64,000 nt of DNA, taken from a bacterium. GTDB taxonomy: Bacteria; Acidobacteriota; HRBIN11; JAKEFK01. The first letter of the stretch is position 1; each line of letters starts with the position of its first letter. The notes below the pieces were generated by a model. It was not told the DNA's origin. It saw nothing but the letters and a program-made list of their open reading frames with translations, and ran no database searches. Location: positions 572 through 64,571 of the forward strand of contig JAKEFK010000024.1 in the NCBI GenBank assembly GCA_022616075.1, in the 5' to 3' direction. The position numbers were made by a program, and so were the translations under genes. Below are positions 1 to 62,705 of the stretch, in pieces.

Positions 1-181
1 GATAGAGGCCGTACCATTGGAGTCGAACGATATCTTCTTCTGCCATGGATTCATAACCACGTTGGATCAGCATCGGCAAATCGCTCAAGATCTCGAGTGG
101 CGGCTTCTCTTTTTTTAGTCTCTCGCGAGAATTTTTCTTGAGCACTTGTTCCAGTGTCAGATCTTCATCTGCCAATTTCAC
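1..181 (-). CDS. Ferredoxin-type nitrite/sulfite reductase, N-terminal fragment; gene continues past the window edge
   Basis: Minus-strand translation (LADEDLTLEQVLKKNSRERLKKEKPPLEILSDLPMLIQRGYESMAEEDIVRLQWYGLY) matches the conserved N-terminus of NirA/Sir-type reductases. The only in-frame starts are TTG(175) or GTG(181) just after a U-tract. Confidence 0.45.
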   Translation of the reverse strand, partial: MKLADEDLTLEQVLKKNSRERLKKEKPPLEILSDLPMLIQRGYESMAEEDIVRLQWYGLY

Positions 182-198
182 TCCAAAAACTTTCGCCC

Positions 199-238
199 AA
201 AATAAAAAACCCGCTTCCTCTTCAGGGAGGACAGCGGG
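199..238 (-). terminator. Intrinsic-terminator-like hairpin plus U-tract in the leader, directly upstream of the reductase start (candidate attenuator)
   Basis: Minus-strand CCCGCTGTCCTCC-CTGAA-GAGGAAGCGGG followed by TTTTTTATTTT. An equivalent hairpin is present in copy 2 (4398..4436). Confidence 0.45.
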
Positions 239-294
239 TTAAGAATTTCAGATTTTTAAGGGATTGCTAGAACCGGCGCGTGTGCCGTCTAACG

Positions 295-360
295 GATTTC
301 AAAACCTGCTGCCCTGCCCCTACGAAAGGGGCGGATACAGCAGCAATGTGTTTTGAAATC
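295..360 (-). promoter_or_regulatory. 66-nt extended, near-perfect hairpin in the leader RNA
   Basis: gatttcaaaac...ctgctgccctgcccct-loop-aggggc...cagcag...gttttgaaatc. Stem arms are conserved in copy 2 and the loop differs. Confidence 0.45.
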
Positions 361-385
361 TTTTGTATTCATGAAGACAATTTGA

Positions 386-414
386 ACCTAAGTCAATTGT
401 CCTGAATTGTCAAG
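386..414 (-). promoter_or_regulatory. Sigma70-like promoter (TTGACA-17-TAGGTT) driving the structured leader
   Basis: -35 and -10 hexamers with 17 bp spacing on the minus strand. Confidence 0.3.
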
Positions 415-624
415 CCGTTAGCGATGAATACTTATCATGGATAAGATGAACGAACTTGTGTTTACGGCGATTTATAAATAACGCCGCCTTTTCGGACATG
501 AAGGGCCTTGTAACTATGCGCCCGAAAGTGGGTCAATTTTCAACGCCCCTTGACAGAACACATTCAGGATACGCGGCAAAGTCCAGCCGAAAAGCTGACA
601 ACTCCAGTAGATTTTGAGCCTGCA

Positions 625-2175
625 TCATTGGGAAATGTTCTTTTCAAGCTGCATCCAGAAGGGAAGCCAGAAATGGAATAAAGGAGGTGGAGCTGCTGCG
701 GCAATCTCGCCTGTCAATTTGTTATCCATGAGCCACAATCGAAAACGCGTGCGGTGATTGTGATTTGCTGTATCGGGATTCCGGATCGTTGCATCGGAGC
801 GTCCGGATACTCGACCTTCGATCCAGGTTAGATCGGTTACCGGATGTTCCGCATCATCACCGATTTTTAACCTCGCTGCGCTCTGATCGATCTGCAGCAG
901 GACCGGAATTGTTTTTTCCCATGTCACGATTTTCCCACTCCACCTTCCCTGCAAACCTTCAGGCGCATGGAAGGGAAGTTCAGGAGGTCTGGGTTTTCGC
1001 GTCGGATCGAGCACGCGGCGCGCAGGATAATCTTCAATCAACACATCGAGCACCGAGTCGGCGAGTGAATACGTCAAATCCTGTCGACTGTTCGATAGAA
1101 CAGCAATCACGATTCTTTGCTTCGGTGCAATTCTCAGAATGGTGGAAACACCCGGGGATCCACCTTCATGTCCATACCACAGGTGTCCGAATTTCGATTC
1201 CTCTCTACCTCCCCAACCCAACCCGTAAAACCAATCCAAGCCCCAGAATCCGGAGGCAGAGCCGGAAGACTTTTTCTCCTGGATCATCCGGTCAATGTTT
1301 TCTTTACTCAGAATCTGGCGCTGATCTTTTACCTGCTCTTTCAGGTGAAACATCCCGAACCGCACGAGATCGTGAGCTGTGGAATAGATTGTCCCCGATC
1401 CGCGAGAATCAAAATCATAATCTGGGATGAGGGTCTCTCCAGGCCCGAATCTTTTTGCGACGTTTCGATCCGCAGGACCAACCGAAGTCTGATAAAGCCC
1501 GAGCGGCTGGAAGAGCTCCTGTTGCATGAATCTGCTAAAGGATTGCCCGGATACGTCTTCGATGACCCGTTCGAGAATTCCGTACCCGAGGTTGGAGTAA
1601 TCGTGTTGTTCGTCCGGTTGGCGCACGACAATTGCGTAGCGTTGGACTGTCTCATCCAGGGAAGGGCGTCTTGTTTCATCGTTCGCAAAATAGTAGCGAT
1701 TCTGTTCTGCGAGCCCTGCCCTGTGCTGCAAAATCAGTTGCAACGTGGCATCCTTTGCATCGGCCGCATGTCCTGTAATTTTTGCGTTCTTTAAATAGTT
1801 GTTGGCCGGACGATTCAAATCGACCAGACCATTCTGGACCAGTAGCATCAGACCTGTTGCTGTAAGGGGTTTTGATACGGACGCGATCGGATATGTTGTG
1901 GCGGGAGTTGCCTTCCTCCTGCTGGAGATGTCAGAGAATCCAAATGCCTCCTGCCAGAGGATTACTCCTTTCATCGCAACAGCGATCGAAACGGAAACCG
2001 GCGTGCCTGTTTTCACGGATTGCAGTATCTGGGTGCGTATCGGCTCCAATCGCGAATCCTGTAAGGGGAGCGTTGTCGCTTCCCTGGTCGATGAAATTGT
2101 GATCTGTGTGAGCAGGGCAACCAGCAGGCTAAAGGTAAGCAAGGCGAAGAGAGCGCGCGGTTCGCGGGTGCTCAT
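625..2175 (-). CDS. Class-C beta-lactamase-like serine hydrolase with signal peptide and C-terminal extension domain
   Basis: 516 aa ORF with a hydrophobic N-terminal signal, an SxxK motif (ASVSK) and a YSN motif (DYSNLGYG). Confidence 0.85.
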   Translation of the reverse strand: MSTREPRALFALLTFSLLVALLTQITISSTREATTLPLQDSRLEPIRTQILQSVKTGTPVSVSIAVAMKGVILWQEAFGFSDISSRRKATPATTYPIASVSKPLTATGLMLLVQNGLVDLNRPANNYLKNAKITGHAADAKDATLQLILQHRAGLAEQNRYYFANDETRRPSLDETVQRYAIVVRQPDEQHDYSNLGYGILERVIEDVSGQSFSRFMQQELFQPLGLYQTSVGPADRNVAKRFGPGETLIPDYDFDSRGSGTIYSTAHDLVRFGMFHLKEQVKDQRQILSKENIDRMIQEKKSSGSASGFWGLDWFYGLGWGGREESKFGHLWYGHEGGSPGVSTILRIAPKQRIVIAVLSNSRQDLTYSLADSVLDVLIEDYPARRVLDPTRKPRPPELPFHAPEGLQGRWSGKIVTWEKTIPVLLQIDQSAARLKIGDDAEHPVTDLTWIEGRVSGRSDATIRNPDTANHNHRTRFRLWLMDNKLTGEIAAAAPPPLFHFWLPFWMQLEKNISQ

Positions 2176-2459
2176 GGTGCAAGCTTAAAATCAACGGAAC
2201 TGGCTGTCCAGTGAGTTATTTTCAGCATTTGGATGAGAGAATCTAATTTAGAATTTTTTCGGTCACGACTTCTCCTATCAAACCGATTCGGTAAAGCAAA
2301 CGGTGACCCCCACTGATTTGCCAAACTCCGATCATATAAGACATAACCGCATGAGCTCATGACGTTAATGAAAAAGATTAATTGGTTTCTGTCCAGTAGG
2401 AATCATTAGAATAAGCAAATGAAATTACAGGTTATGAAAGTTCAGGAAGAGAATTTGAG

Positions 2460-3483
2460 ATGAAACTGGTTGAATTACGCGAACGTTACGCAATTGATAA
2501 CCTCATGGTTGTAGAGGGTCCGGTACCGGAAGTACGTGCGGGCGAAGTGTTGATACAAATCAACGCATGTTCCCTGAATTATCGAGATTTGCTGATTGTG
2601 AGGGGTTATGGACGTTGGAAAAAAACCTTGCCGTTCGTGCCACTGTCTGATGCGGCTGGAGAAGTTGTGGAGGTTGGACCTGGAGTTTCAAGAGTTGCAA
2701 TTGGTGACAGTGTTGCTGCGATATTCGTTCCGGCGTGGTTAGATGGAGATCTTTCGGAGGAAAATGATGGGCCTGCCATGGGGGAAATGCTCCCAATACA
2801 GGGTTCTTCCAGAGGAAGTGCTGGTTCGAGTCCCGGAGCACCTGAATGATACGGAAGCGGCAACGCTGCCGTGCGCGGCCGTAACGGCATGGAACGCCTT
2901 GTCCGGAGAAGGTTCGCCGAAGCCCGGGGAGACGGTAGTTGTACTGGGTTCCGGGGGAGTATCGTTGTTTTCGCTTCAATTTGCTCGCCTCAAAAAAGCG
3001 CGTGTTATTGCATGCTCCCGGAGCGAAGCCAAGATAACCCAACTTTTAAAACTGGGTGCAGATCACGCAATCAACTCTGGAGTTTCACCTGGATGGCCTG
3101 AAGTTGTGATGCAATTAACGGAGGGCCGCGGGGCCGATTACATTATAGATGTTGTTGGCAGGCTCGCGGATTCCGTTCATGCACTCCGGTTCGGAGGTCT
3201 CATTAGCGTCATCGGAATGCTCGATCGATTTTCGACTGAAATCGATCCGGCTGTAATAATGGCAAAAAAGGCGCGTCTCCGCGGGCTCCAGGTTGGCTCA
3301 AGGGAAATGTTCGAAGCCATGAATCGCGCCCTTTTCCGCCACCGAATCCGTCCTGTCATCGATCGCGTTTACAACCTGACAGCCGTGCAGGCCGCCTACC
3401 GCAGACTTGAAAGCGGTGATCAGTTCGGCAAAGTATGCATCCGGCTCTGGCCTGATACTAAAGAAAAAAGCGACTTTAACTAA
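2460..3483 (+). CDS. MDR-superfamily NAD(P)H:quinone oxidoreductase/alcohol dehydrogenase, frameshifted
   Basis: The N-terminal half (2460..2849) and C-terminal half (2743..3483, motifs VVVLGSGGVS and EAATLPCAAVTAWNAL) lie in different frames. The shift falls at a G5 run (2779..2783). Confidence 0.75.
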
Positions 3484-3496
3484 GGAAATAGGAATC

Positions 3497-4246
3497 ATGA
3501 GATTCGTCGGAAAAATAGCTCTCGTGACGGGGGCCGGCAAAGGAATAGGGAAGGCTACAGCTCTCAAGCTGGCATCGGAAGGATCTGATGTCGCTGTACA
3601 CTATCTTCGTTCATCGGAACATGCCGAATCAGTTTGTGAGAAAATTCGTGCGCTGGGAGCTCGAGCCTTGGCGGTTCAGGCAGATATTGCCGACAGAGAA
3701 ACCGTAAATAAGATGGTAGCTTGCGTCACTGCGGAGCTTGGCCCGATCCAATTGCTGGTAAACAATGCGGGGGATATAGGGGATATCGATTTCCATCAAT
3801 TGCAGCCTGAGCATTGGGATCGGATTGTTGCAATAAACCTCACAGGCCCCTTCAATCTTATCTGGGCAGTGAAGGAGGGGATGCTTGCTCGACAATTCGG
3901 CAGGATCGTAAATATTTCCTCTATTGCGGCCTTAGCCGTTCGACCGAATCTTCTTCCGTACTCAGCTGCAAAAGCCGGGGTGATCTCATTGACAAAATCC
4001 TGTTGCGCTCCGTTTGCTCAAAAGAATATCAGAATCAATTCCGTCGCACCGGGCGCAATTGATACGGATATGTTGCGTGAGCTTTCCCCACAAACAGTAG
4101 AGCAATTGAAGTCCGCGACTCCGTTGGGCCGTTTGGGCGAACCGGAGGAAATCGCAAATGTTGTCGCGTTTCTTCTCAGTGAGGAATCAAGTTACATGAC
4201 GGGCTCTACAATCATCGTCAGCGGTGGCAGAATGCTGATTCCGTAA
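3497..4246 (+). CDS. SDR-family oxidoreductase (FabG-like)
   Basis: Glycine-rich motif GKIALVTGAGKGIGKA, NNAG, and catalytic YSAAK. RBS-like GGAAATAGGA precedes the ATG at 3497. Confidence 0.85.
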   Translation: MRFVGKIALVTGAGKGIGKATALKLASEGSDVAVHYLRSSEHAESVCEKIRALGARALAVQADIADRETVNKMVACVTAELGPIQLLVNNAGDIGDIDFHQLQPEHWDRIVAINLTGPFNLIWAVKEGMLARQFGRIVNISSIAALAVRPNLLPYSAAKAGVISLTKSCCAPFAQKNIRINSVAPGAIDTDMLRELSPQTVEQLKSATPLGRLGEPEEIANVVAFLLSEESSYMTGSTIIVSGGRMLIP

Positions 4247-4342
4247 TCATGCCATGCTGATTATCGAGCCTTCATAGATATGGCGTCTTTCTGCTGAACC
4301 AAACCGGATTTTGGTGTCAGAGTGACGTATGGACTGCCGCGA

Positions 4343-4649
4343 ACTTGTTCCAGTGTTAGATCATCCTCTGCCAATTTCACTCCAAAAACTTTCGCCCAAA
4401 ATAAAACCCCGCCTCCTCCTCAGAGAGGACAGCGGGTTAGGAATTTCAGATTTTTAAGGGATTGCTAGAACCGGCGGCTGCGCCATCTAACGGATTTCAA
4501 AACCTGCTGCCCTGCCCCTATGATAGGGGCGAATACAGGAGCAATTTGTTTTGAAATCTTTTGTATTCATGAAGATAATTTGAACCTAAGTCAATTGTCC
4601 TGAATTGTCAAGCCGTTAGCGATCAATACTTATCATGGATAAGATGAAA
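4343..4649. repeat. About 307 bp repeat, copy 2: orphan duplicate of the reductase 5' leader, downstream of the SDR gene
   Basis: Same hairpins as copy 1. On the minus strand it encodes FWAKVFGVKLAEDDLTLEQV and then diverges and stops. Confidence 0.8.
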
Positions 4650-4705
4650 TTATCAAATGAGGTGACGCTCATCTAGGAAATTCTTCCTTTCAGATCCTTA
4701 CAAAC

Positions 4706-5313
4706 TCAGCGGCTCTGAGATGTTTTCTGAAAGTAATATCCACCTTCGTAGAAGCCAACTACATTTCCCATTGAATCAAAGACAAAACTAAGAATTTCGC
4801 CAGGAGAATGCGGACCGGACATTCTGAATCTGTCTTTCCCTTCAGGCGTAAGCTCGGAATCGGAGTTTGGATACTCTACCCAACTCAATATCAACTGATT
4901 GTCCTTTATAGCGAGGTCCATACTAAAAGAGAGAACCTCGGATCGATATCGGCCGATGAATTTTCCGAAATCTTTTGACGTTTGGAGGGAAACCGATTGT
5001 TGTTTAGAACGGTGGATCCGATCAAAAATCGGAATTAGCAATCCAGGACTTCTCACAAGTGTTTCGTGGCCACTCCTTTGTATCCATATTCGTTAATATT
5101 ACGATTCCCAGTTTTGATTCCGGGACGAAAGCAATCATCGAATCATACCCGGGAGCGTCGCCTGCGTGACCAACTAGAGTGCGGTCGCTTTTTCGAAAAA
5201 GGGCGAACCCAATTCCGTAACCGAAACTCCAATTGCTATTCATGAACTGAGGCGTCCGCATTTCTCTCAGACTATGAGCTGATAATACTTCAGAATCGTC
5301 TTTGAACTGGCAC
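4706..5313 (-). pseudogene. Second class-C beta-lactamase-like gene, C-terminal part, separated from its N-terminal part by an inversion
   Basis: Encodes QFKDDSEVLSAHSLREMRTPQF...GHAGDAPGYDSMIAFVPESKLGIVILTNMD plus the C-terminal extension. It aligns to residues about 270-516 of the 625..2175 protein. Confidence 0.7.
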
Positions 5314-6258
5314 ACATTTACGCCAAAAAAACTTTGGAAGCCGGCTTTACGTCGGTTCGTGATCTTGGAGCCAGCGAACTGATCGACGTTGCCTTGAAAA
5401 AAGCGATTAACAATGGGAGGATCCCCGGTCCCCGCATGTTCGTTGCCACTCTCACCTTGGGCGCCACAGGTAGTCACGGAGATTGGGGGACCGGCTTTCC
5501 CCATACCTTCGTATGGAAGGATTGAGTAACACTGCGGATGGGGTTGAAGAGATCAGGAAAGCTATTCGACTTCAGATTAAGTACGGAGCCGATCAAATTA
5601 AATTTGCAGCCACTGGTGGGGTATTTAGTGAAGCGGGATCGGCCGAGGGTATGCAGTACTCTCCTAAGGAGATGAGAGCCATCGTGGATGAGGCGCATCT
5701 CTGGGGCAAGAGAGTTGCGGCGCACGCACACGGAACGCAAGGAATAAAAACTGCTGTGGAGGCAGGAGTCGATTCCATTGAACATGGAAGTCTTATAGAT
5801 GAAGAAGGAATTGAGATGATGAAGAAACGTGGCACTTATCTCATTCCCACAATTTTTGCGGCGGATGCTGTTGAAATTTACGGTAAGGATTGGAATCTGC
5901 CTGAAAGTATCCTCGCAAGAGGGCGGTCTATCAACAAAGAAAACGTGAAAACTACAGAAAGGCAATCAAGGCGGGTGTCAAGGTTGGGTTCGGATCAGAC
6001 GCCACCGTATTTCCCCACGGAATGAACGCTGTCGAATTTTCTCATCTAGTCGAAGTGGGAATGACGCCAATGCAGATAATCCAGGCCGCTACAGTTGTTA
6101 ATTCAGAACTGCTCGGTAAGAGCGACGAATTAGGATCCATCGAACCAGGAAAAATATGCTGATTTCATCGCCGTTTATGGAGATCCATTGAAGAATATCG
6201 AGGCGCTCAATGATGTACGATTTGTTATGAAAGGCGGCGTTATTTATAAATCGCCGTA
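5314..6258 (+). pseudogene. Amidohydrolase-family (metal-dependent hydrolase) gene body, detached from its N-terminus and multiply frameshifted
   Basis: LEAGFTSVRDLG...AAHAHGTQGI...GVDSIEHGS...GSDATVFPHGM...YKSP*. Lesions include an 8-nt insertion near 5940 and an extra A in an A5 run near 6150. Confidence 0.7.
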
Positions 6259-6321
6259 GACAGAAGTTCATCTTTACGAATCGAATTCTTTAACTCATTC
6301 GGAAATAAATGAGCTAAGATA

Positions 6322-7213
6322 GTGGTATTTTTGATGATTCCTCGTGGCGCATCATTGATTAAACGGACAAGAAATTCCCTTTTCATCTGTTTCTTTCTAC
6401 TCCTTCACTTCGAAACCGGCCAGAGTCCATCTGCGGCAGCGATGAAGGATGATCCTGAAATAAAAGCTGCCCTGCAAATTGTTGACGAAATCATCACCAG
6501 ACGCCATTCTGTGGCGGAAATATAGGACCTCAGCCGCAATTATTTACGGCGAGAAGGTGATATGGGCAAAGGGATATGGTTATTCCAATATTGAAGAAAA
6601 ACAGCCGGCCACCCCTGATACGATTTATCGAATCGCATCTATCACTAAAGTGTTTACTGCGACAATGCTCATGCAATTGCGAGATGAAGGCAAGCTACAG
6701 CTTGATGAGTCTCTAGTGAGCCATATCCCCAATCTTAAGATTCGCAACCGATTCTCGAGTTCCGCGCTCCTTTCGTTCAGGCAGGTCGCATCACACTCTT
6801 CAGGTCTGCAGCGGGAACCACCCGATATTCAAAAATACTGGGACACTCTTATTTTTCTTCCATTGAACTCATGATGCCTTCCATTATTGAGAAGGCTGAA
6901 ATGGCAACGCCACCGTTAACCTGCTTGAGCTACTCGAATCTGGCTGTCGCCTTGATGGGTCACGCCCTGGAGAGAATCGCAGGTCTGGACTATGAGACAT
7001 ACGTGACCGAGCGAATTACTCAACCTCTAGACATGACAGATACTTTTTTTCATCCTTCCCAGAAAGTCCAAAACAGGGTAGCAATTCCCTACACAAAGAC
7101 TGCGGGAACGGTATCAAAACAGAAGCTAATCTATTCGAGTCTGGGAGGTCTACAGCCCGCGGGAGGACTCTTTTCAACGGTAACGGATCTGGGAAGATTC
7201 ATTTCACTCCACA
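6322..7213 (+). pseudogene. Second class-C beta-lactamase-like gene, N-terminal part (signal peptide, SITK, YSN) with at least two frameshifts
   Basis: Three consecutive ORFs in different frames (6322..6525, 6479..6874, 6871..7320) together align to the N-terminal about 270 aa of a class-C enzyme. The match ends abruptly after ISLHKN at 7213. Confidence 0.7.
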
Positions 7214-7557
7214 AGAATTGCGCGATCGATTGGAGACATCCTGAACAATTCGGCTTCGTAGTTCTCAGCCTGTTCTGTGATATGCGTGTGGGCATCTATC
7301 AAGCCGGGCAGCACAGTTAATTGGGATAGATCAATTCTTCGTGCACTAACCGGAACCTGAACATGATCCGCCGTACCAACTGCTTCAATCGGTTCCCCTT
7401 TTACTAAAATCAGCTGATTATCAATCACTTTTCCAGTTTTGACGTCAATCATCCTACCGGCCTGGAGAACGGAATAACTAACTTCTTCTGCTTGCAAGTT
7501 TGCGAAAAGGGTGGCGAAAAGTGAAAAAACCACGATGAAGAATTGGAGTAATTTCAC
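7214..7557 (-). pseudogene. Amidohydrolase N-terminus (signal peptide plus HxH metal site DAHTH), now separated from the gene body at 5314..6258
   Basis: MKLLQFFIVVFSLFATLFAN...LPGLIDAHTHITEQ. The ORF terminates inside repeat R2 at the inversion junction. Confidence 0.65.
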
Positions 7558-7650
7558 AGTCTGTCCTCCTGTCCTTTTCTAGACTATCCGGAAGCATTGC
7601 TGATGGTATTGGACAAAAAAGATTGATTGGACAAAAAGCACAATCGGTGT
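7498..7650. repeat. About 150 bp repeat R1, copy A (upstream region plus signal-peptide codons MKLLQFFIVVFSLFATLFAN)
   Basis: Near-identical to 9815..9965. Confidence 0.8.
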
Positions 7651-7669
7651 AAGGGAAGCAATGACCACT

Positions 7670-9874
7670 TCAACCGGGTCCGAAGCCCAGAGGCGAAACA
7701 TTCAAGGCCGGTTCAGGCCCCGGCCCAAGGTGGCGCTCGAACCAGTCTAGCACCCGCTGCAGGACGTCCACCTGATGGGCTCGCTCGCTGATGCCATGCG
7801 GCTCGCGTGGGTAGACGACCATCTCGGTCTCTGTACCGACGAGCCTCAGAGCATGATAAAACTCCCACCCTTGGCCTACAGGAGCCAAGTCGTCCGCTTC
7901 GCCGTGCAAGACGAGAGTAGGCGTACGGCAGTTTTTGACATGCGCCAGCGGGGAGCGGTTCCAATAGGCATCGGGTCGATCGATGTGAGTACCGAGGAAG
8001 TAGGGCGAGAAGAACGACGGTGTAAACGTGCCGCTCCCATTGGAGCTCGCCAAATTCGACAGTCCGGCGCTCATGACGGCTGCCTTGAAGCGGTTGGTTT
8101 GAGTAACCGCCCAGGCGGTCATGTAGCCTCCGTACGACCCGCCCCCGATCCCGAGCCGGTGCGGATCGGCGATCTTCTGATCGATCAAATGGTCCAGGCC
8201 GTCCATGATGTCCGTGAAGTCTCCGCCTCCCCAGTCGTCGCGGTTCGCCTCGGCGAATCTCCAGCCCTGGCCGCTTGATCCACGAGGATTCGGCAGCAGA
8301 ACCACGAAGCCGTGAGACGCCAGGAGTTGGCCCCATTCCCACGCTGAGCCATGCCAACCTGCCCACCATGCCCACTCCGGCCCGCCGTGCACTTGCACGA
8401 CTGTCGGCTGCGGGTTTCCCTTTCGGAAACCCGGCGGGGTGATCAGCACACCATGGATTATACGGCCGTCCTGGCTGCTCTTCCACGATATTTCCTCACT
8501 CTCACCGAGCCGCCAGGAGGCGGCCTGCGGATGGAGAGAGGTAAGACGGCGACCGGGCTCGCCGATACGCAGCACCCACACATCATCGGGCGACTGGCCC
8601 GTACCGCTGACGTACGCCAGCACACGGGAATCGGCGCTCGCGCTGAATCTGCGGCCAGGCCACAGGAAGGTCTGAGCCTCGCCTAGCACCTGTACCGCTT
8701 CCGTCGAGACCTTCACGCGCAATAGGCGCGTCCGCGCAGCCTCGAAGCTCTGGAATAGCAGATGCTCAGAATCCGAATCCCATTCTGCGCCCCAGTCTCC
8801 CGTCCAGAGCGAGCCCGGGTAGTCGTCCAGCAGATAGCGCGGCCGACCGCCGGCGGCGGGAACCAAAGCCACCCGGATGGAAATGTTGGCGGGAGATGGG
8901 GTCGAGAAAGCGATGGTGTGTCCATCCGGCGACCAGCGGACTATCTGTTCCGAATAGGCAATCGCTTCGCTCAGGGTGCGCGCCACTTGGCCCCCCTGCC
9001 TTCGGATCACAACCAGTCTGGAGGGCTGATAGTGGACGTCTTCCATGCGAGGCGTCTTTGCGGTCACGATTGCGATCTCCTCTCCACCGGGCGACCAGTC
9101 AAAATCGCTGATCTCGAGACGCTGTGGTGATACCGGTTCGGCATGACCGTCGACCAAACGCACGACGTACAGTCGCGAGTACCTGTAATTATGGTCAGCG
9201 TACCGTGCATCGTCGCCATCCTTTGATTTTTTCACCTCTTCTTCGGAGGGAGCTTCGCGCAGCGTAAAGGCGATCATCGAGCCGTCTGGTGACCAGCGAA
9301 ATCGCAGTACCTCTCCCCGGAGCGCGGTGACCGGCTCGGCCTCACCACCGTCCAGACGCAGCAGCCAGAGCTGGGCCCCGGCTCCGCTCAGTGCCCCCTG
9401 TGGACACGGGCGATCGGAGAGGAAGGCGAGCCGCCTGCCTTCTGGGGACCAGCGAGGCGTGGTGTCGTTGGCTAGATGCGACGTCAACCTGCGAGCCGGT
9501 GCGTTGCCGTCGGTTGGGACGATCCAGATATCGGCCTTGGGGAGCGGATCAGGGCGTGCCGAATCGACCGCCTCACGTACCACGAAGGCGATCCGCAAGC
9601 CGTCTGGTGAGACTTGGGCGTCGCTGACCTCGCGGATGGCGACCAGATCCTCGGGGGTTACAGAGCGCTTCGCCTCGCTGATGGTGTCCGAAGACGCTGA
9701 TGTAAAGCCTGCTTCCAAAGTTCTTTGGCGTATGTGTGTGCAAAAATTGCGCGATCGATTGGAGACATTCTGAACATTTCGGTTTTCGTAGTTCCCCGCC
9801 TGGTCTGTTTGTCCGTTTGCGAAAAGGGTGGCGAAAAGTGAAAAAACCACGATGAAGAATTGGAGTAATTTCAC
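7670..9874 (-). CDS. S9-family serine peptidase (prolyl oligopeptidase/acylaminoacyl-peptidase-like) with N-terminal beta-propeller; GC-rich chimeric gene
   Basis: GGSYGG nucleophile elbow, and C-terminal Asp and His motifs (HGEADDLAP, REPHGI). The body is about 65% GC against about 48% in the flanks. The first about 60 codons come from the amidohydrolase leader (R1-R2-R3). Confidence 0.85.
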   Translation of the reverse strand: MKLLQFFIVVFSLFATLFANGQTDQAGNYENRNVQNVSNRSRNFCTHIRQRTLEAGFTSASSDTISEAKRSVTPEDLVAIREVSDAQVSPDGLRIAFVVREAVDSARPDPLPKADIWIVPTDGNAPARRLTSHLANDTTPRWSPEGRRLAFLSDRPCPQGALSGAGAQLWLLRLDGGEAEPVTALRGEVLRFRWSPDGSMIAFTLREAPSEEEVKKSKDGDDARYADHNYRYSRLYVVRLVDGHAEPVSPQRLEISDFDWSPGGEEIAIVTAKTPRMEDVHYQPSRLVVIRRQGGQVARTLSEAIAYSEQIVRWSPDGHTIAFSTPSPANISIRVALVPAAGGRPRYLLDDYPGSLWTGDWGAEWDSDSEHLLFQSFEAARTRLLRVKVSTEAVQVLGEAQTFLWPGRRFSASADSRVLAYVSGTGQSPDDVWVLRIGEPGRRLTSLHPQAASWRLGESEEISWKSSQDGRIIHGVLITPPGFRKGNPQPTVVQVHGGPEWAWWAGWHGSAWEWGQLLASHGFVVLLPNPRGSSGQGWRFAEANRDDWGGGDFTDIMDGLDHLIDQKIADPHRLGIGGGSYGGYMTAWAVTQTNRFKAAVMSAGLSNLASSNGSGTFTPSFFSPYFLGTHIDRPDAYWNRSPLAHVKNCRTPTLVLHGEADDLAPVGQGWEFYHALRLVGTETEMVVYPREPHGISERAHQVDVLQRVLDWFERHLGPGPEPALNVSPLGFGPG

Positions 9875-9965
9875 TGTCTGTCCTCCTGTCCTCTTCTAGA
9901 CTATCTGAAGCGGGGTTGATGGTATTGGACAAAGAAGATTGCTTGGACAAAAAGCACAATCGGTG
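9815..9965. repeat. About 150 bp repeat R1, copy B, fused onto the S9 peptidase gene; followed by R2/R3 at 9700..9800
   Basis: Near-identical to 7498..7650. The adjacent 9700..9800 matches 7215..7265 (R2) and 5314..5345 (R3, opposite orientation). Confidence 0.8.
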
Positions 9966-9986
9966 TTCGACCGCAGGAGCTACCAC

Positions 9987-10950: not shown

Positions 10951-11293
10951 CTATGGTTTGTTTGTTTGCCAACCCGGGAAAACGGCTGCTCGATCCCACC
11001 AGGTACTTTCGGGAAAATCAGTCGAAAGCTGTTTCCAATGTTCCTTTAAGATTTCGCGATTCCTTCCAGCTATTCGGTATGCTGCGATTCCCTTCCAAAA
11101 TAACGCTTCAGGAGTAACCGTCAAATTCTTTGTTGAGCAGTTGCGTCACCCGTTCGTTCGGATACGTCACGGCATCCATTTTCCCGCAACCCAGTCAACC
11201 GGGAACGTAGAAATCGATAAAAAGCGCCTTTTGTTTTTCTTGCGCCTTTCTTTGCGCTTCTTCAATGTTGGAACACCATAAGATGTCCGGCAT
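10951..11293 (-). pseudogene. Decayed paralog of the thioredoxin-fold UxxC gene at 35129; retains the in-frame TGA
   Basis: MPDILWCSNIEEAQRKAQEKQKALFIDFYVPG-TGA-LGCGKMDAVTYPNERVTQLLNKEF, then an internal deletion and frameshift, then a C-terminal match (EALFWKGIAAYRIAGRNREILKEHWKQLSTDFPESTWWDRAAVFPGW). Confidence 0.55.
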
Positions 11294-35128: not shown

Positions 35129-35722
35129 ATGCCGGGAATCCTGTGGTCTTCTAACGTTGATGACGCGCTCATGAAAGCCCAAAAAGAAAAAAAAGCGCTT
35201 TTTATCGATTTCTACGTTCCCGGTTGACTGGGTTGCGGGAAAATGGATGCCGTGACGTATCCGAACGAACCGGTGGCGCAACTGCTCAACAAAGAATTTG
35301 CCTGTGTCAAATGCAACGTGCAGGAGAAAGTGCCCGAGCTGCTATTGAATTTCGGAAAAATCCAATGGACTCCCACGTTTGTCATCGCGGATCACGCGAA
35401 AAATCAGATCCGAAGGATTATCGGGTATCGGCCGCCTGTCGAATTCCAGGCCGAACTTCACGTTTCGCTCGGCCTGATTGATTTGCTTCACAATCGTAAC
35501 AGGGAGGCTCTCCTGCAATTTGAGGGCATTGCGAATCGATTCCCGAAGTCATTGGTTGCGGCGGAATCTGTGTTCTGGAAGGGAATAGCTGCATATCGAA
35601 CTGCAGGCAGGAATCGAGAAGTTTTAAAAGAATACTGGAATCAGCTTTTAACCGACTATCCGGAAAGTACGTGGTGGGATCGAGCGGCTGTTTTTCCTGG
35701 CTGGGAACCAAACCGCCCATAA
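35129..35722 (+). CDS. Thioredoxin-fold (Thioredoxin_7/DsbD-gamma-like) protein with in-frame TGA in a UxxC redox motif; putative selenoprotein
   Basis: ATG 35129 ...ALFIDFYVPG-TGA(35225..35227)-LGCGKMDAVTYPNEPV... continues in frame to 35722. The TGA sits exactly where the first Cys of CxxC is expected. A hairpin GGATGC-CGUGAC-GUAUCC lies 20 nt downstream (SECIS candidate). Confidence 0.6.
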
Positions 35723-53499: not shown

Positions 53500-55548
53500 T
53501 TACGTCAAGCCAAGCGATTTAAGCGCTGCCGTCATTGGATCGCTGTAAAAGATCGGGTCGACGCGTTCCATGATGTCGGCCGGAACGGCAAGGAAATCGC
53601 GCTTGTTCTCTATCGGAACCATTGCACGGCGAGCACCATTTTCCTTTCCTAATTGAAGGGCTTGGTCTAAGGAGCGCAAAGCCTTAATGTTCCCCTGAAT
53701 GCTCAGATCTCCAAGCACCATTAGCGCTGGCAAAGTCGAAGATTTCTTCAATGCAGAATATATCGAGACAACAAGCGCAACGCCCGTCTCTCCGGTGACG
53801 TGATTGTGCAATAAATCGATGACCTCGACATGGAAGTCAGTCGTATCCACTTGCTGAGCAATTCCCATATCCACCTTATGACCCTGTATGTAGGAGAACG
53901 CGCGACGAAGCGACTCGCGCATCCCGGGATCGATTGCACCTGACAAACTCAGCTTTCCAGTTCCAGATGAGCAACCGACCTCCAGTCGAAACAAACCAAC
54001 TTTTCCTTGATCATCAACGGAGGCCGTGTAAAGCGACCCGGGTGCAAGCGGATCCGCAGAAATCAGATTCCGCCCGCCTTCCTCCGGAACACCGACGTAA
54101 CGCTCCTCACCTGTCTCCTTTTCTATATAGGAGAAAGATGTGTTGAAGAATTCAAATGAACCCATCTTCTTCAACTGCTCTTTGACCCTTCGCCTTCCTT
54201 CCAGTGCGAGCTCCAATATTTCTTGGAGTTCGTCTTTCGTCATCTCGCCATGGGGATAAATTAGTTTGGCCAGCCCTGCAACGGTTTTTCGTGATGCTTT
54301 AACATCACGAGATTTCAATTGCGATCCAAGAGAAAAATGCGTATCAATAATCTCGGTGAAATTGCGGCGGCGGAGCTCACGAAGCGCCTCAGCAAGATAG
54401 TCCACGACGAATCCATACCCTGAAGTGAACATGCTGGTCTGCATTTTCGGAATCTCCCACCCAGGAACATAAAAATGAATGCGGTCCAGAAAGGCGGTGT
54501 CTTCCCGGATCACATCCGGCAAAGGAGCAAATAAATGCGACGACCGGACCATCACATCAACCGCCTGGTGGATATTTCCAAAGAATGCAACCGAAGCAGT
54601 GCCGCTCAATTGCTCTTTTCCTCGCGCAAAACTTCCTGATTCGCAATAGGTCTTCAGCGTGGTAATCACTTCTCGCGGCATCTTCTGCAGGTCGGCCACT
54701 TCATCAAATGCGACCGCATCCCACAAGCCAACCAATCCAATCTTGTTCGTGCTCATGTTGTAGAAAAGATTGGCAACGGTTGTAGGACCAGTTAGAAGAA
54801 TTGCGTACGGAGAGAGTTGCTGGTACGCGAACGATTTTCCGGTTTCGCGGGGTCCCAATTCAATCAGGTTATAATTTTGCTCGCATAATGGCACGAGCCG
54901 CATCAGATAAAGGAGTTTCAACCGCCGGCTCATCCCGATGGGTTCTAGCCCGATTGTGCGAACTAATAAATCGACCCACTCTTCTGATGTGAAACCTTCT
55001 CGCCCGTTAAAATATTCCTGGATATCGAATGTAGCCACCTGAATCGGCTTCAGATCATCAATCCAAAACGGACTCCGGCGACCCTGAACCTGATCATCAT
55101 ATTCATGGCGTAATTCGACCTCGGACCAAACGCCATCCACGAGAAGACGATCGAAATTCCGCACGAACCGGTCCGGGACATGAATGAAGCGGTTCCCGAA
55201 GTTTACGATTTCCGCCCAGTACTTATCATCTTCAGCCAGATACCGAACTTTGACTTTATCAATGAGGATGTGTCGTCCTTTTTCTTTGACAACGGACTGT
55301 GCCTTATTCGCTTCATCGGGGCGCACGAAATTTTCCGCAAGAGTCGAGTTGACGATTTTTAATCCTGCTTCGACTGCGACAGGATCATCGGTTGCACAGT
55401 ACTTGCCTAACAAGTATTCCAGAACATAAACCGGCACTGTTGATCCGAACTTGAGCTTGCGCACCAATTCTTTTCGGACGACCTTACCGGCGAAAGTTTT
55501 GCTGACCTTGGCGTCCAGCGCGTCCGGAACCGACTGGTTAGAAAGCAA
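53500..55548 (-). CDS. brxL: BREX Lon-like protease BrxL
   Basis: 682 aa. The N-terminus (...KVVRKELVRKLKFGSTVPVYVLEYLLGKYC) and a C-terminal Lon protease-like domain are typical of BrxL. Confidence 0.8.
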   Translation of the reverse strand: MLSNQSVPDALDAKVSKTFAGKVVRKELVRKLKFGSTVPVYVLEYLLGKYCATDDPVAVEAGLKIVNSTLAENFVRPDEANKAQSVVKEKGRHILIDKVKVRYLAEDDKYWAEIVNFGNRFIHVPDRFVRNFDRLLVDGVWSEVELRHEYDDQVQGRRSPFWIDDLKPIQVATFDIQEYFNGREGFTSEEWVDLLVRTIGLEPIGMSRRLKLLYLMRLVPLCEQNYNLIELGPRETGKSFAYQQLSPYAILLTGPTTVANLFYNMSTNKIGLVGLWDAVAFDEVADLQKMPREVITTLKTYCESGSFARGKEQLSGTASVAFFGNIHQAVDVMVRSSHLFAPLPDVIREDTAFLDRIHFYVPGWEIPKMQTSMFTSGYGFVVDYLAEALRELRRRNFTEIIDTHFSLGSQLKSRDVKASRKTVAGLAKLIYPHGEMTKDELQEILELALEGRRRVKEQLKKMGSFEFFNTSFSYIEKETGEERYVGVPEEGGRNLISADPLAPGSLYTASVDDQGKVGLFRLEVGCSSGTGKLSLSGAIDPGMRESLRRAFSYIQGHKVDMGIAQQVDTTDFHVEVIDLLHNHVTGETGVALVVSIYSALKKSSTLPALMVLGDLSIQGNIKALRSLDQALQLGKENGARRAMVPIENKRDFLAVPADIMERVDPIFYSDPMTAALKSLGLT

Positions 55549-58099
55549 GCGATACCTCCACAGGATTCGGTTTTACGAGTTCCATTCCGGTTAACGAATC
55601 AATCAGATGGATGGTAACGGATCCTGACGCTGGCGCCTTTTCGGTAAGCATTAAAGCAATGGTATTGGGTTCCACGCTGTTCGGGCTTTGCGTGGATTCG
55701 CGTAGCGCAAAATCTGCCGTTGTCTGGTTGAACCCATAGCTGCCACTGACAGGAATCGAGCAACTCTCGTTTCCGACCCGCGCTTCCACCTTGATCCGGG
55801 GCCATTCCATCTCGAGCACTCGCGATTCCCCTGTAACTGTAACGGAAAAAAAACGGCTGGTAATTTTCGGAGTCCCAAGTGCCAGCTTCCATGAGATGCC
55901 TTTCACTGTGTCGTAATGCTGGGTCACTTTAGGGCGGGCTGTCAGAACTGGGATGATGAGTTCTTGAGGGGATGCCCCGCCGTGGAAATAAGAAACCGAT
56001 CCGCCCGAACGGAATACAGCCAGGTTCAAGGGAACGGCGATGTCAAGATCGCTGTTGATGCCGAACTTCGAAAGCGGTTCCATAAAATAGCTTGGACTGC
56101 TAGCGCCGTTTCGCCCTACCCAGACGCGACGATGCAGCAGCGCGGTCTTTCCTCCGGGCGCATCAATCTTCATCGAGTCGTCCATTTCTTCTCCATACAG
56201 AAATCCATGATCTGCAGCAACGACGATATGTTCGACTCCTACCTCCGCCAGTCGCCTCATCGCGATACAGAGCTGACTTAAAACATCATCCATCATTTGC
56301 CTGGTCGATGTAAAACCTTTTTCTCCACTGCTGTCGATTTCCTGAGAGGTCAGCAGGACGATAAATGGGCCGCTCGGCACTTCTTTCAGCTTCCTTTTTA
56401 TTGCTTTGTATTCTTCCAGCTTCAAAACCACAACCGGCATATCGATGTTTGACGCAAAGTATTCGATCCGCTTTTCCCGATTTGCGAGGACTTTATCGCC
56501 CATTACGACTTCCAACGCCTTATTGGGAGCACGAAGTTGCATGGATTGCCGGGCCCTTGGTAACAAAGCGGCCATCCCAACTTCAGTAACCGCCGGAAGC
56601 GTTCCAATCACAGCATTGAGCTGAAGATCAAACTCCTTTCCCAGTAGTCCGTTCAGCTCCGTCGCCATTTCGTAGCGTAATGCGTCTACGAAAATGTATG
56701 CGGTTTTCTTCTGATGAAAATGAGGTTCTACAAAAATCTCGAAAACTTCACTTTGCTTGTAAAAGTCCGGTATATGAAAAGAGGCATCTTTCAAGGCTCT
56801 TAAAAAAGTTTCAGCTAACAGAGTGGCCGCTTCGTGGTGTGCTTTTCTCGCGGATGAGACGAGCTTGTCAAGATCATCCGGCAGCTTTAAATGCACTTCA
56901 AGGTTGGACGTTTGCTTTTCCAGATAACGATGGAGAGTATCCATCCGGTGCCATTCATCGATATAAGAACGGACTATGGATGAGGCGTTCTTCTTGCCGA
57001 CCTGTGATTGAACAAAAGAGCTGAACTGAATCAACTGAGCGGCAAGGTTAAGAATATTCCACTGGCCCTTGAGTTCTGGGTCCTGCGTAGCCCAGAAACC
57101 CTTCGCTCGTTTGCTAGCAAAGGCCAATACGTCCTCACCAATCCGCTCGATTAGTTTCTTTGCAGTATTCGTTAATAGGATAGCGTCGATCTTGGCAAAT
57201 GTTTCCACTTTCTGGCAGATTTCAAATGGTAAAGACATGCTGTTGACGTGCAGTGACTTCTCCACTTGGGCCGCCGCTCGTTTGTAACTTTCAGCGAGAC
57301 CAAGCTGTCCACGCCAGGATGCCGCCAATTCAGAGCATTTCCTCAATGCGTACGCATCGATCGTTCCGGCAAGAGTCACGAGCGCCGGAGGGATATCATC
57401 AGCCAGTGAATAAAGGAAATCAGCTATCAGAACGTGTCTCGCAAAGACGCTTCTCAACTGTTCGGGCGATTTTTCTGTTTTGATCGGAGCTTTATATATT
57501 GAAGAGAGAGAATTAATGAGCTCTGATGACGCTTTTTTGTCGAGTAACACTTGGTCGTATCTGTCAGATGAGACAAACTTCAATGCTGCTTCTTCCGGCA
57601 TGTCGACACCAAAAATCACATTGAGTACCGGGGACAATCGGAGATCACTCCCTTCGTCGGCGAGGCGTTCTAGATCCGCAAGTTTGAGTTGTCCACTATC
57701 GATTTGTTTTTCCAGTTCATCCAATCGATGATCCGGAATGCGTCCCTTCAGAGATCTTCTTGCAACTAATGATAATCGTGTGTTCCGTAGCACGGAACGA
57801 TCCCCCGGTTGCGCGACCGCTCCCAGCGCTGCCAGCTCAGCAAGCGCCTGTTTCGTTTGATCGCGATGGAGCGGAACATAAACGAGCATGTGAGGACGAT
57901 GCGGTCCGCGTAAGGCTTCTTCGATCTGCGCGCGCAGATCGTAATAGCTTGTGTTATACCGGGCAATCTTACAAGACGGAATTTTGAGAGTCTCAATCAG
58001 TGATGAGTACGTTTGGTCAGGGTCAAACCATAGAACAATTCCTTGCTCGGCGACCTGCCGGGCCAACATCTCCTGCAGATGATCTGCTATGACTCCCAT
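55538..58099 (-). CDS. pglZ: BREX alkaline-phosphatase-superfamily protein PglZ
   Basis: 853 aa. PglZ-domain motif region (IFVDALRYEMATEL...) in the C-terminal half. Confidence 0.8.
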   Translation of the reverse strand: MGVIADHLQEMLARQVAEQGIVLWFDPDQTYSSLIETLKIPSCKIARYNTSYYDLRAQIEEALRGPHRPHMLVYVPLHRDQTKQALAELAALGAVAQPGDRSVLRNTRLSLVARRSLKGRIPDHRLDELEKQIDSGQLKLADLERLADEGSDLRLSPVLNVIFGVDMPEEAALKFVSSDRYDQVLLDKKASSELINSLSSIYKAPIKTEKSPEQLRSVFARHVLIADFLYSLADDIPPALVTLAGTIDAYALRKCSELAASWRGQLGLAESYKRAAAQVEKSLHVNSMSLPFEICQKVETFAKIDAILLTNTAKKLIERIGEDVLAFASKRAKGFWATQDPELKGQWNILNLAAQLIQFSSFVQSQVGKKNASSIVRSYIDEWHRMDTLHRYLEKQTSNLEVHLKLPDDLDKLVSSARKAHHEAATLLAETFLRALKDASFHIPDFYKQSEVFEIFVEPHFHQKKTAYIFVDALRYEMATELNGLLGKEFDLQLNAVIGTLPAVTEVGMAALLPRARQSMQLRAPNKALEVVMGDKVLANREKRIEYFASNIDMPVVVLKLEEYKAIKRKLKEVPSGPFIVLLTSQEIDSSGEKGFTSTRQMMDDVLSQLCIAMRRLAEVGVEHIVVAADHGFLYGEEMDDSMKIDAPGGKTALLHRRVWVGRNGASSPSYFMEPLSKFGINSDLDIAVPLNLAVFRSGGSVSYFHGGASPQELIIPVLTARPKVTQHYDTVKGISWKLALGTPKITSRFFSVTVTGESRVLEMEWPRIKVEARVGNESCSIPVSGSYGFNQTTADFALRESTQSPNSVEPNTIALMLTEKAPASGSVTIHLIDSLTGMELVKPNPVEVSLAF

Positions 58100-58101
58100 C
58101 T

Positions 58102-61848: not shown

Positions 61849-62705
61849 TTGGGAGGAGGATTATCTAATGCTTGCAAGAAGAACTTTTGGGCCACTAAAA
61901 ACTCTTCCCGGAGTTGAATCAGGCGTTGTGCAACAATTTCATCTAAGGCGAGACAAACATGGCGGGTCGTATCAACCGCCTGAGAGGTCCAGGAAAAGGC
62001 GATAGGCTGTCTGGTTCCTGATTCGTCATTTAGAACTCGATCACTCCTGTGAACGATATCGTTTCTTCTTTGGAGACAGTCTCCGACCACTTTTGTAACC
62101 TCAGCCGCTTTGCGATTTAGGCGAGCACCAACATCTGTCCAAGGATCCTTAAGACCGAGAAGCAACCCCACCGTCTTTAAACCATTAACAGATCCAAGAT
62201 TCTTATTTTGGACGTAGGAAACTATTTTTCTTCCCAAAAAAACTGAACTTTCCTCATCGTTTAACAGACGAAACGCTTCTCCTATTGGGAGCGACAAACC
62301 CTTAAAATATTCCGTCACGTCCTTGTCGCTTGGAAAGAAATCAGCACCCTTCATATCGATAACATCATGTATATGTTCCCCCAGCAGAGTGGACAGGTAT
62401 GTTTCGTAAGCTGTACATGCACTGACAACAGCTTGACGAAGGAGGTTATCAAGTGATTCGCGTTTCAGGGTTGATGGATGAATGCGCGCCTCTTCGCGAA
62501 TGATCCCAACAAAAATCGAATTAAGAATCAACTGCAACATTTCATCGGATCTGGCGCCCACAACACCCCGCAGTTTCGTGAGAAGCTCACTTTCGGTAAT
62601 TACCTTGTCGTTTTCCAACATTCGATACACATCCAACATTAGCTGGGCCAAACGAAAGCTGTTTTCGAAAACCTCTTTAGGCGAAAGAGTAGTGCTTACT
62701 CCCAT
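61845..62705 (-). CDS. Hypothetical protein embedded between brxC and pglX; possible HEPN-like Rx4H motif (RRNDIVHR)
   Basis: 286 aa. 4-nt overlaps with both neighbours suggest translational coupling within the BREX operon. Confidence 0.45.
   Translation of the reverse strand: MGVSTTLSPKEVFENSFRLAQLMLDVYRMLENDKVITESELLTKLRGVVGARSDEMLQLILNSIFVGIIREEARIHPSTLKRESLDNLLRQAVVSACTAYETYLSTLLGEHIHDVIDMKGADFFPSDKDVTEYFKGLSLPIGEAFRLLNDEESSVFLGRKIVSYVQNKNLGSVNGLKTVGLLLGLKDPWTDVGARLNRKAAEVTKVVGDCLQRRNDIVHRSDRVLNDESGTRQPIAFSWTSQAVDTTRHVCLALDEIVAQRLIQLREEFLVAQKFFLQALDNPPPK

Follow-up and report, generated by a model that had tools for sequence, protein, structure and literature searches.

In bacteria, inversions that do not depend on sequence homology are attributed to NHEJ (Ku/LigD) or to topoisomerase-mediated strand exchange. 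Inversions made by template switching are usually accompanied by larger duplications or deletions, and a 3-bp duplication at just one end is not what conservative site-specific recombination should produce. Here we describe a 1.9-kb inversion in an NCBI metagenome-assembled genome (MAG; locus tags L0156_) of an uncultured bacterium. It lies on a 74-kb contig, of which a stretch of 64 kb was analyzed as a whole (the window). The inversion is confirmed as real and cleanly resolved, and it is biologically ordinary; by itself it raises no new question. Its main value is that of a base-pair-resolved, repeat-free reciprocal inversion in an uncultured bacterium, with an internal copy of the "before" state. 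It also corrects the annotation: the small MAG proteins across the stretch, MCI0601771.1 at the least, are fragments that belong to two pseudogenes.

Extent and junctions of the inverted segment

An amidohydrolase gene and a beta-lactamase-like gene, lying in tandem on the same strand, had been predicted to be split into four pieces by one reciprocal inversion. We re-inverted segment 5311..7211 in silico. Both genes were rejoined in tandem on the minus strand, in frame and collinear with their homologues, which upholds the original prediction (Table 1). The four pieces had been placed correctly, with ends off by 2-3 nt. The segment itself had been given as 5314..7213, whereas the re-inversion fit puts the breakpoints between 5310 and 5311 and between 7211 and 7212. 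Because of a 1-nt G/C ambiguity, 5310..7212 is an equivalent description. Within the segment, the amidohydrolase body and the N-part of the lactamase-like gene are separated by an intergenic spacer of 62 nt.

Table 1. Features at and around the inverted segment, in window coordinates
Feature	Position	Strand	Basis or remark
Region downstream of lactamase pseudogene	4343..4648	minus	Duplicated at 144..450 (93.5%)
Lactamase-family pseudogene, 3' piece	5310..4706	minus	QFKDDSEV ... GHAG ... C-terminal domain; stop 4706-4708
TGG, one copy of the 3-bp duplication (reverse complement of CCA), left-flank end	5308..5310		Homologue comparison
Inverted segment	5311..7211, 1,901 nt (or 5310..7212)		Both genes in frame after re-inversion
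Amidohydrolase pseudogene, body and 3' end	5311..6259	plus	AHIYAKKTLEAGFTS ... VMKGGVIYKSP; stop TAG 6257-6259
Lactamase-family (PF00144-type) pseudogene, 5' piece	6322..7211	plus	ORF listing, homologue alignment
CCA, second copy of the 3-bp duplication, right end of inverted segment	7209..7211		Homologue comparison
Amidohydrolase pseudogene, 5' piece	7557..7212	minus	ORF 7204..7557; aligns to homologue residues 1-115
Upstream region, RBS and signal-peptide coding part of amidohydrolase gene	7487..7650	minus	Direct repeat with 9804..9966
Chimeric S9 peptidase gene, intact	7670..9874	minus	Residues 1 to ~62 from duplicated amidohydrolase 5' part
J', diverged partial amidohydrolase copy with un-inverted junction	9699..9808	minus	Matches both sides contiguously

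The restored amidohydrolase junction reads ...SPIDRAIL/AHIYAKKTLEAGFTS... (a slash marks the join), in nucleotides ...CAATTCTTG/CACACATT..., with zero bases gained or lost. The restored lactamase junction, ...DLGRFISLH/QFKDDSEV..., is also in frame and carries one extra codon; in nucleotides, ...CACTCCA/GTTCAAAG... or ...CACTCCA/CCAGTTC... would mark the un-inverted junction. A 1-nt misfit had been reported at this junction because the breakpoints then used sat 2-3 nt away; what is found there is a 3-bp (CCA) duplication. The restored gene reads CT-CCA/CCA-G, which adds a His at a position where none of 120 homologues has a residue. Across all 495 aa of the stitched protein, only two internal insertions are genuine and unique to this sequence. 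We read the tandem CCA/CCA as a 3-bp duplication left by the inversion event.

No inverted repeats beyond chance were found within 60 nt either side of the breakpoints, and a repeat search returned no pair either, in agreement with the original prediction. The longest exact inverted match near the breakpoints, 7 nt, lies off the junctions and is typical of random window pairs, whose mode is 6-7 nt. Microhomology at the junctions amounts to 1 nt (G/C).

The two pseudogenes and their surroundings

The amidohydrolase 5' piece starts with GTG, and its N-terminus resembles a signal peptide. It includes the N-terminal domain and the HxH motif (DAHTH) and reaches ...SPIDRAIL (sequence ...DAHTHITEQAENYEAELFRMSPIDRAIL). 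Once restored, the protein aligns with seven homologues over its full length at 54-60% identity, gap-free also at the junction, and covers 99-100% of these ~430-aa proteins (E ~1e-160). All superfamily motifs are present (HxH, conserved Lys, HAHG, IEHG, and the Asp of GSDA), and the product qualifies as an imidazolonepropionase-like member of the amidohydrolase superfamily (PF01979/PF07969). The second gene belongs to the beta-lactamase/serine hydrolase family (PF00144), whose SxxK, YxN, and H/KxG motifs appear as SITK and YSN in its 5' piece and GHAG in its 3' piece. A 73-aa fragment of the latter (MCI0601771.1) is labeled "serine hydrolase" by PGAP. The restored protein aligns with its homologues over the full length at 37-39% identity, covering 92-97% of ~480 aa (E ~1e-90), and an intact paralogue in the window (625..2175) aligns across the restored junction.

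Neither gene is a single uninterrupted ORF; each is split by the inversion and by three frameshifts. Additional frameshifts in both genes had indeed been foreseen. Those of the amidohydrolase gene fall at ~5496-5502 (T3/C4 run, -1), ~5937-5952 (A run, -1), and 6150-6154 (A5 run, +1). The lactamase 5' piece has two (~6517-6530 and ~6857), and the 3' piece has one within ~5040-5090. The six are mostly single-base changes in short homopolymer runs and are confined to ~2.4-7.6 kb; no damage is apparent in the flanking SDR, S9, and AraC genes or in those long ORFs that were screened elsewhere. Sequencing error was ruled out as their source by this local confinement together with exact reproduction in the Logan contig described below. 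Because of the six frameshifts, neither orientation yields a working gene. The decay of both genes is likely recent, since the conserved catalytic-motif residues are still intact. A leave-one-out count of violated invariant columns was of no use for dating the pseudogenes, as the query is the outgroup in each of the two alignments.

Evidence on the arrangement before the inversion comes from the window itself. The partial copy J' was noted in the original prediction (as 9700..9800) for matching the restored junction, and it does carry this junction contiguously, equal in length to the restored amidohydrolase copy. J' is 88% identical to 7212-7278 (E = 2e-17) and 86% identical to 5310-5353 (E = 3e-7). 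It acts as an internal witness of the ancestral, un-inverted arrangement. The nearby direct repeat of the gene's upstream region is 91% identical, with a 60-nt exact stretch (7498-7557 = 9815-9874).

Among relatives, no un-inverted allele was found in a close one, the best homologues being ~60% (amidohydrolase) and 37-39% (lactamase) identical. A scan of genome contigs with the stitched amidohydrolase gave only distant relatives, at most 40% identical, and no un-inverted orthologous locus in that collection. The ORFs expected from an un-inverted allele with identical frameshifts were looked up by exact match, and none is on record. With no close un-inverted relative, the ancestral state is reconstructed solely from within the window. 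The 22-nt sequence just before the amidohydrolase breakpoint gave two matches in a JGI metagenome scan, both unrelated chance matches. The amidohydrolase-lactamase tandem is absent around two of the closest homologues, P0003 and P0122, and the S9 peptidase encoded near P0003 shares only 24% identity with that of the window. Synteny is therefore neutral and supports neither side.

The surrounding 10 kb contains several further rearrangements. The body of the chimeric S9 peptidase gene has a GC content of 62-65%, against ~45% around it, and appears to be foreign DNA fused to the duplicated amidohydrolase promoter and signal peptide. It offers a tidier story for the expression of horizontally acquired genes, because a foreign body would sit behind a resident promoter and signal peptide. 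On the other side of the inversion, a NirA-family gene is reduced to its first 13 codons in the downstream-region copy at 4343..4648, and the copy at 144..450 continues into the gene. The E'/D' junction nearby (~447-455) has a 4-nt tandem, GTTCGTTC, which fits a repair similar to that at the inversion. Two further features of the locus are a 213-nt deletion with similar short sequences at its endpoints (CAGAA-like on each side) and a cassette flanked by 8-nt TTCATCTT repeats. A search of the whole window against Rfam found no family.

Origin of the inversion

We conclude, with a probability of roughly 85%, that the sampled population of this uncultured bacterium carries a genuine, non-programmed chromosomal inversion, in which a 1.9-kb fragment was rejoined in reverse without sequence homology. 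The cause is most likely a one-off illegitimate recombination, with two breaks rejoined in reverse and fill-in at one of them. Before the event, neighboring genes for two secreted hydrolases would have stood in tandem on the minus strand; the DNA would then have been broken once within each, and the fragment between the breaks turned around. In the lactamase gene, a 3-bp stagger at the break would have been filled in, so that each new junction kept one CCA/TGG copy; in the amidohydrolase gene, the ends would have been rejoined with no base gained or lost. The inversion may have killed both genes at once or struck genes already dead, and three frameshifts per gene would have accumulated since. 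The junctions look as end joining would leave them, with 1-nt microhomology, a 3-bp duplication at one and no change at the other, and the 3-bp fill-in footprint points to this type of repair. We infer the two double-strand breaks and their NHEJ-like joining with fill-in, as well as the order of inversion and frameshifts. Neither ku nor ligD was seen in the 64-kb window.

The 1-nt G/C microhomology and the small duplication at one junction could also come from replication-based, microhomology-mediated template switching at a stalled fork, and the nearby deletion with CAGAA-like endpoints and the TTCATCTT-bounded cassette fit such a process. We regard this as unlikely, as the exchange is fully reciprocal and the gain is just 3 bp.

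A broader reading is that the inversion is one product of a localized, recurrent cut-and-rejoin activity that also built the neighboring structures. The candidate agent would be something such as an unrecognized nuclease or transposase-like enzyme making 3-4-bp staggered cuts. In one of these structures (loop 7528-9844), the foreign S9 body is looped between two copies of the amidohydrolase promoter/signal-peptide module; in the other (loop ~450-4594), a block of SDR, ADH, and lactamase-paralogue genes is looped between the two downstream-region copies. The path of the MAG contig at the loops runs through exact repeats of 60 nt and 47 nt. If this reading were true, the locus would act as a natural "cassette-swapping" site, with a resident expression/secretion module into which incoming genes are inserted. 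We consider it decidedly unlikely.

The 3-bp duplication, inverted across two new junctions, resembles a split target-site duplication, as if an IS had cut its target with a 3-bp stagger, turned the neighboring DNA around, and later been lost. Such a transposase event is very improbable. There is no IS, terminal repeat, or transposase at the breakpoints or among the screened ORFs, the coding sequence of both genes extends right to both junctions, and the seamless amidohydrolase junction leaves no room for an excised element.

The MAG is a short-contig metagenome bin, and repeats around the locus break the Logan graph at 4594, 7527, and 9845; both points could favor an assembly artefact confined to the MAG contig. 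Logan is a de Bruijn-graph assembly separate from the MAG assembly, made with k = 31 after throwing out k-mers seen only once (PMC12424806). From the raw reads of run SRR16971108, it yields a 2,934-nt contig (L008) that is 100% identical to window 4594..7527, gap-free, and unbranched at either breakpoint. Each junction 31-mer is thus present at least 2 times in the reads. A k-mer graph can invert a segment only if both of its ends carry inverted repeats of length k-1 or more, and the longest here is 7 nt; the graph-breaking repeats sit outside the inverted segment. As the Logan contig spans the two breakpoints and includes each of the six frameshifts, an artefact of the assembler is very unlikely. 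This largely answers the objection raised with the original prediction, that reads might support only the uninverted arrangement. The run is probably the read set behind the MAG too, so the independence is from the assembler, not from the library. A full-text literature search for SRR16971108 gave no match.

Least probable of all is programmed inversion, with a site-specific recombinase flipping the segment as in a phase-variation switch or shufflon. A reciprocal, nearly conservative exchange would fit it, but the segment ends lack inverted repeat sites, the breakpoints lie inside coding sequence, the six frameshifts leave no working gene in either orientation, a 3-bp duplication at one end only is unexpected, the unbranched Logan contig indicates that one orientation dominates, and Pfam found no invertase, integrase, or transposase in the 28 window ORFs scanned, a set that leaves out several long ORFs. 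The 10.8-12.2 kb ORFs were checked for a recombinase or transposase by listing, without a Pfam scan, and none was found. As to coexistence of the two orientations, the Logan contig has no branch and the look-ups of un-inverted ORFs were empty, in an assembly that may prune a minor variant.

Comparison with known systems

The restored genes resemble secreted COG1228-type amidohydrolases and PF00144 "CubicO group peptidase" hydrolases in being full-length and collinear, with motifs intact; unlike members of those families, both are pseudogenes here, through the inversion and three frameshifts each. As in homologous recombination between inverted IS or rRNA copies, a chromosomal segment has been inverted, but its ends carry no repeats and its size is 1.9 kb, against tens to thousands of kb. 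A discrete segment flipped reciprocally is also what the Hin/Gin/Cin invertases, FimB/E, and the shufflons produce; in contrast to those systems, this locus has no repeat sites, no recombinase gene among the screened ORFs, and no functional alternative state, and it has a 3-bp duplication at one end only. The closest likeness is to homology-independent (illegitimate) inversions. This one differs in being known from 64 kb of sequence alone, with the responsible enzymes as candidates only, and it shares with them the repeat-free breakpoints, the reciprocal exchange, a few bases filled in at a junction, and the disruption of genes as a side effect.

Two hydrolase genes split by an inversion

Two genes with an ancestral tandem arrangement on the minus strand, one for a secreted, imidazolonepropionase-like amidohydrolase and one for a beta-lactamase-family serine hydrolase (the lactamase-like gene), now lie in four pieces. 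The original prediction attributed this to an inversion of 5314..7213. We flipped candidate segments back in silico and compared the reading frames at the junctions. Flipping 5311..7211, or with the same effect 5310..7212, brought both junctions into frame; 5314..7213 left both slightly off. The inversion splitting two genes is thus supported, with its ends corrected to 5311..7211.

Features of the rearranged locus and its surroundings (window coordinates)
Feature	Position	Strand	Remarks
Amidohydrolase 5' piece	7557..7204 (ORF)	-	begins MKLLQFFIVVFSLFATLFAN, passes GLIDAHTHITEQAENYEAELFRMSPIDRAIL, stop two codons after (ORF listing and direct reading)
Amidohydrolase body and 3' end	from ~5311, TAG at 6257-6259	+	opens AHIYAKKTLEAGFTSVRDLG, closes VMKGGVIYKSP
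Lactamase-like 5' piece	6322 to 7211	+	ends DLGRFISLH
Lactamase-like 3' piece	5310 down to stop at 4706	-	opens QFKDDSEVLSAHSLREM
Duplication copies	CCA 7209-7211; TGG 5308-5310		one per new junction
Amidohydrolase frameshift	5496-5502		T3/C4, single-base change
Amidohydrolase frameshift	~5948		A run, single-base change
Amidohydrolase frameshift	6150-6154		A5, single-base change
Lactamase-like frameshift	~6857		one C lost
Lactamase-like frameshift	~6517-6530		no simple run
Lactamase-like frameshift	within 5040-5090		
Alcohol dehydrogenase, zinc type	2460..3483	+	ADH_N in 2460-2849, ADH_zinc_N in 2743-3483, different frames
Chimeric S9 peptidase gene	7670-9874	-	intact; repeats 9699-9966 and 7212-7650
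BREX-type defence gene cluster	53500-63943	-	

When rebuilt with the segment flipped back and the frameshifts bridged, the amidohydrolase (430 aa) covers 99-100% of its ~430-aa homologues at 54-60% identity (E ~1e-160), and the 495-aa lactamase-like protein spans 92-97% of ~480-aa homologues (E ~1e-90). Against seven homologues the amidohydrolase junction is gap-free, SPIDRAIL followed directly by AHIYAKKTLEAGFT versus the consensus SPIDxAVTAHIYARRTLEAGFT, and a distant intact paralogue at 625..2175 aligns unbroken over the restored lactamase junction. The window also holds J', a divergent stretch copied from part of the amidohydrolase 5' region (9699..9808, minus strand). It is one contiguous match to 7212-7278 (88%) and 5310-5353 (86%), and its length is that of the restored sequence. 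On this alignment, J' reads as an internal record of the un-inverted state.

Recovery by a second assembler and decay of the genes

By exact look-up, the window proteins are MCI0601767 to MCI0601820 (locus tags L0156_) of an NCBI metagenome-assembled genome (MAG). Identical proteins occur in contigs of Logan, an assembly of public read runs by another pipeline, from SRA run SRR16971108. The nearest homologues of the studied genes come from uncultured Acidobacteriota, Bacteroidota, and Verrucomicrobiota, and the genome collection searched held no close relative.

A 2,934-nt Logan contig from that run, L008, equals window 4594..7527 at 100% identity with zero gaps, so that both breakpoints and all six frameshifts fall inside it; the 160-aa ORF across the left breakpoint is on this contig too. 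Logan builds unitigs at k = 31 with Cuttlefish2, dropping k-mers seen once, and contigs with Minia3 (PMC12424806). Each k-mer across the junctions must therefore have been seen two or more times among the raw reads. The Logan graph is unbranched at both breakpoints, and the ends of L008 coincide with the start of real repeats, the signal-peptide repeat and the downstream repeat. The run is probably the same read set as that of the MAG, so this check is independent of the assembler, not of the library.

Additional frameshifts had been predicted in both genes, and we count three in each. They are real and local, since the SDR, S9, and AraC neighbor genes are intact, as are the long ORFs that were screened in other parts of the window, and all six are exactly reproduced in the Logan contig. 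The decay of both genes looks recent: their stitched frames are free of in-frame stop codons, the amidohydrolase retains its conserved HxH, HAHG, IEHG, and GSDA motifs, and the lactamase-like protein keeps its SITK, YSN, and GHAG. The alcohol dehydrogenase gene nearby, also frameshifted, is a third pseudogene of this neighborhood.

Further rearrangements around the inversion

The inversion lies within a 10-kb stretch holding several further rearrangements. A second copy of the amidohydrolase upstream region, ribosome-binding site, and signal peptide lies at 9804-9966 and includes 60 nt of exact identity; 213 nt of the N-terminal domain have been lost from it, and J' comes next. J' runs straight into the body of an S9 peptidase, which is intact and has 62-65% GC versus ~45% around it, with GC steps at ~9700 and ~7660. 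S9 homologues have their own N-termini and align from about residue 66 only. Judged from these alignments, the S9 gene is a chimera whose first ~62 residues, upstream region, and ribosome-binding site derive from a duplicated, since diverged amidohydrolase 5' end; its body (~2.04 kb) looks horizontally acquired. Window 7528..9844 recurs exactly as a 2,317-nt Logan contig, which therefore reproduces the join of J', S9, and upstream region. In the Logan graph this stretch forms a loop attached at the 60-nt repeat; the MAG path through the loop rests on the MAG assembly.

The last 9 codons of the amidohydrolase and the lactamase-downstream region recur at 491..144, joined directly without the lactamase gene, and the join carries a 4-nt GTTCGTTC tandem. 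This second partial copy of the locus (144-491 versus 4343-4648 and 6230-6269) extends into the N-terminal part of a NirA-family gene, which leaves the window at position 1; its counterpart at 4343-4648 is truncated and has only the first 13 codons of that gene. The lactamase pseudogene cassette is flanked on both sides by 8-nt TTCATCTT direct repeats. The duplicated downstream region (4380-4620 and 180-420, both minus strand) is predicted to form three hairpins: one long, one further, and one that resembles a terminator and has a U-tail (z = -2.8). No Rfam family matched this region, which may serve as a leader or small RNA preceding the NirA-family gene.

Elsewhere, 10952-11181 and 35241-35721 form a further repeat pair (60 nt at 97% and 149 nt at 79%, Logan contig L014 versus the window). 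In the BREX cluster, BrxL was recognized by Pfam, and PglZ and PglX (BREX-1 adenine methyltransferase) by NCBI annotation; an HTH/IrrE-like gene and a ThiF/DUF6791 gene lie upstream.

Breakpoints and mechanism

Exact inverted matches in the 60 nt on each side of the breakpoints reach at most 7 nt; the longest lies away from the junctions and does not exceed what random pairs of 120-nt windows typically show, in agreement with the original prediction of no inverted repeats there. Microhomology amounts to one G/C at the exchange point. At the amidohydrolase junction zero bases were gained and zero lost. The restored lactamase junction is TCA CTC CA/C CAG TTC (slash, junction), encoding S L H Q F; all 120 aligned homologues have F-I-S-L-Q-F, and a residue at the His position is found in 0 of 120. 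In the stitched lactamase-like protein, just two internal insertions are genuine and unique to its sequence. The extra codon is a tandem CCA/CCA exactly on the junction, and from this position we read it as a 3-bp duplication made by the inversion event.

Both genes are broken in either orientation, and one of the two orientations dominates in the reads, judged by the unbranched Logan contig. Pfam scans of 28 ORFs turned up no recombinase, invertase, or transposase, with 10.8-12.2 kb covered by ORF listing alone. We rejected homologous recombination between inverted repeats, an IS-mediated event, and a programmed switch, each of which lacks a defining feature here, and this leaves a single illegitimate recombination as the remaining explanation. 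The best fit would be that two double-strand breaks freed the fragment and end joining put it back in reverse: one break would have had a 3-nt overhang with both ends filled in, and the other would have been rejoined flush. We infer this end-joining enzymology, including the breaks and the fill-in; a replication template-switch is the main alternative.

As members of large hydrolase families both genes are ordinary, and both are pseudogenes here. The inversion that split them does not belong to the programmed inversion systems, because their defining features were looked for, at the breakpoints and among the ORFs screened, and not found. It works like known homology-independent inversions and is a fresh, well-resolved instance of this already-known type.
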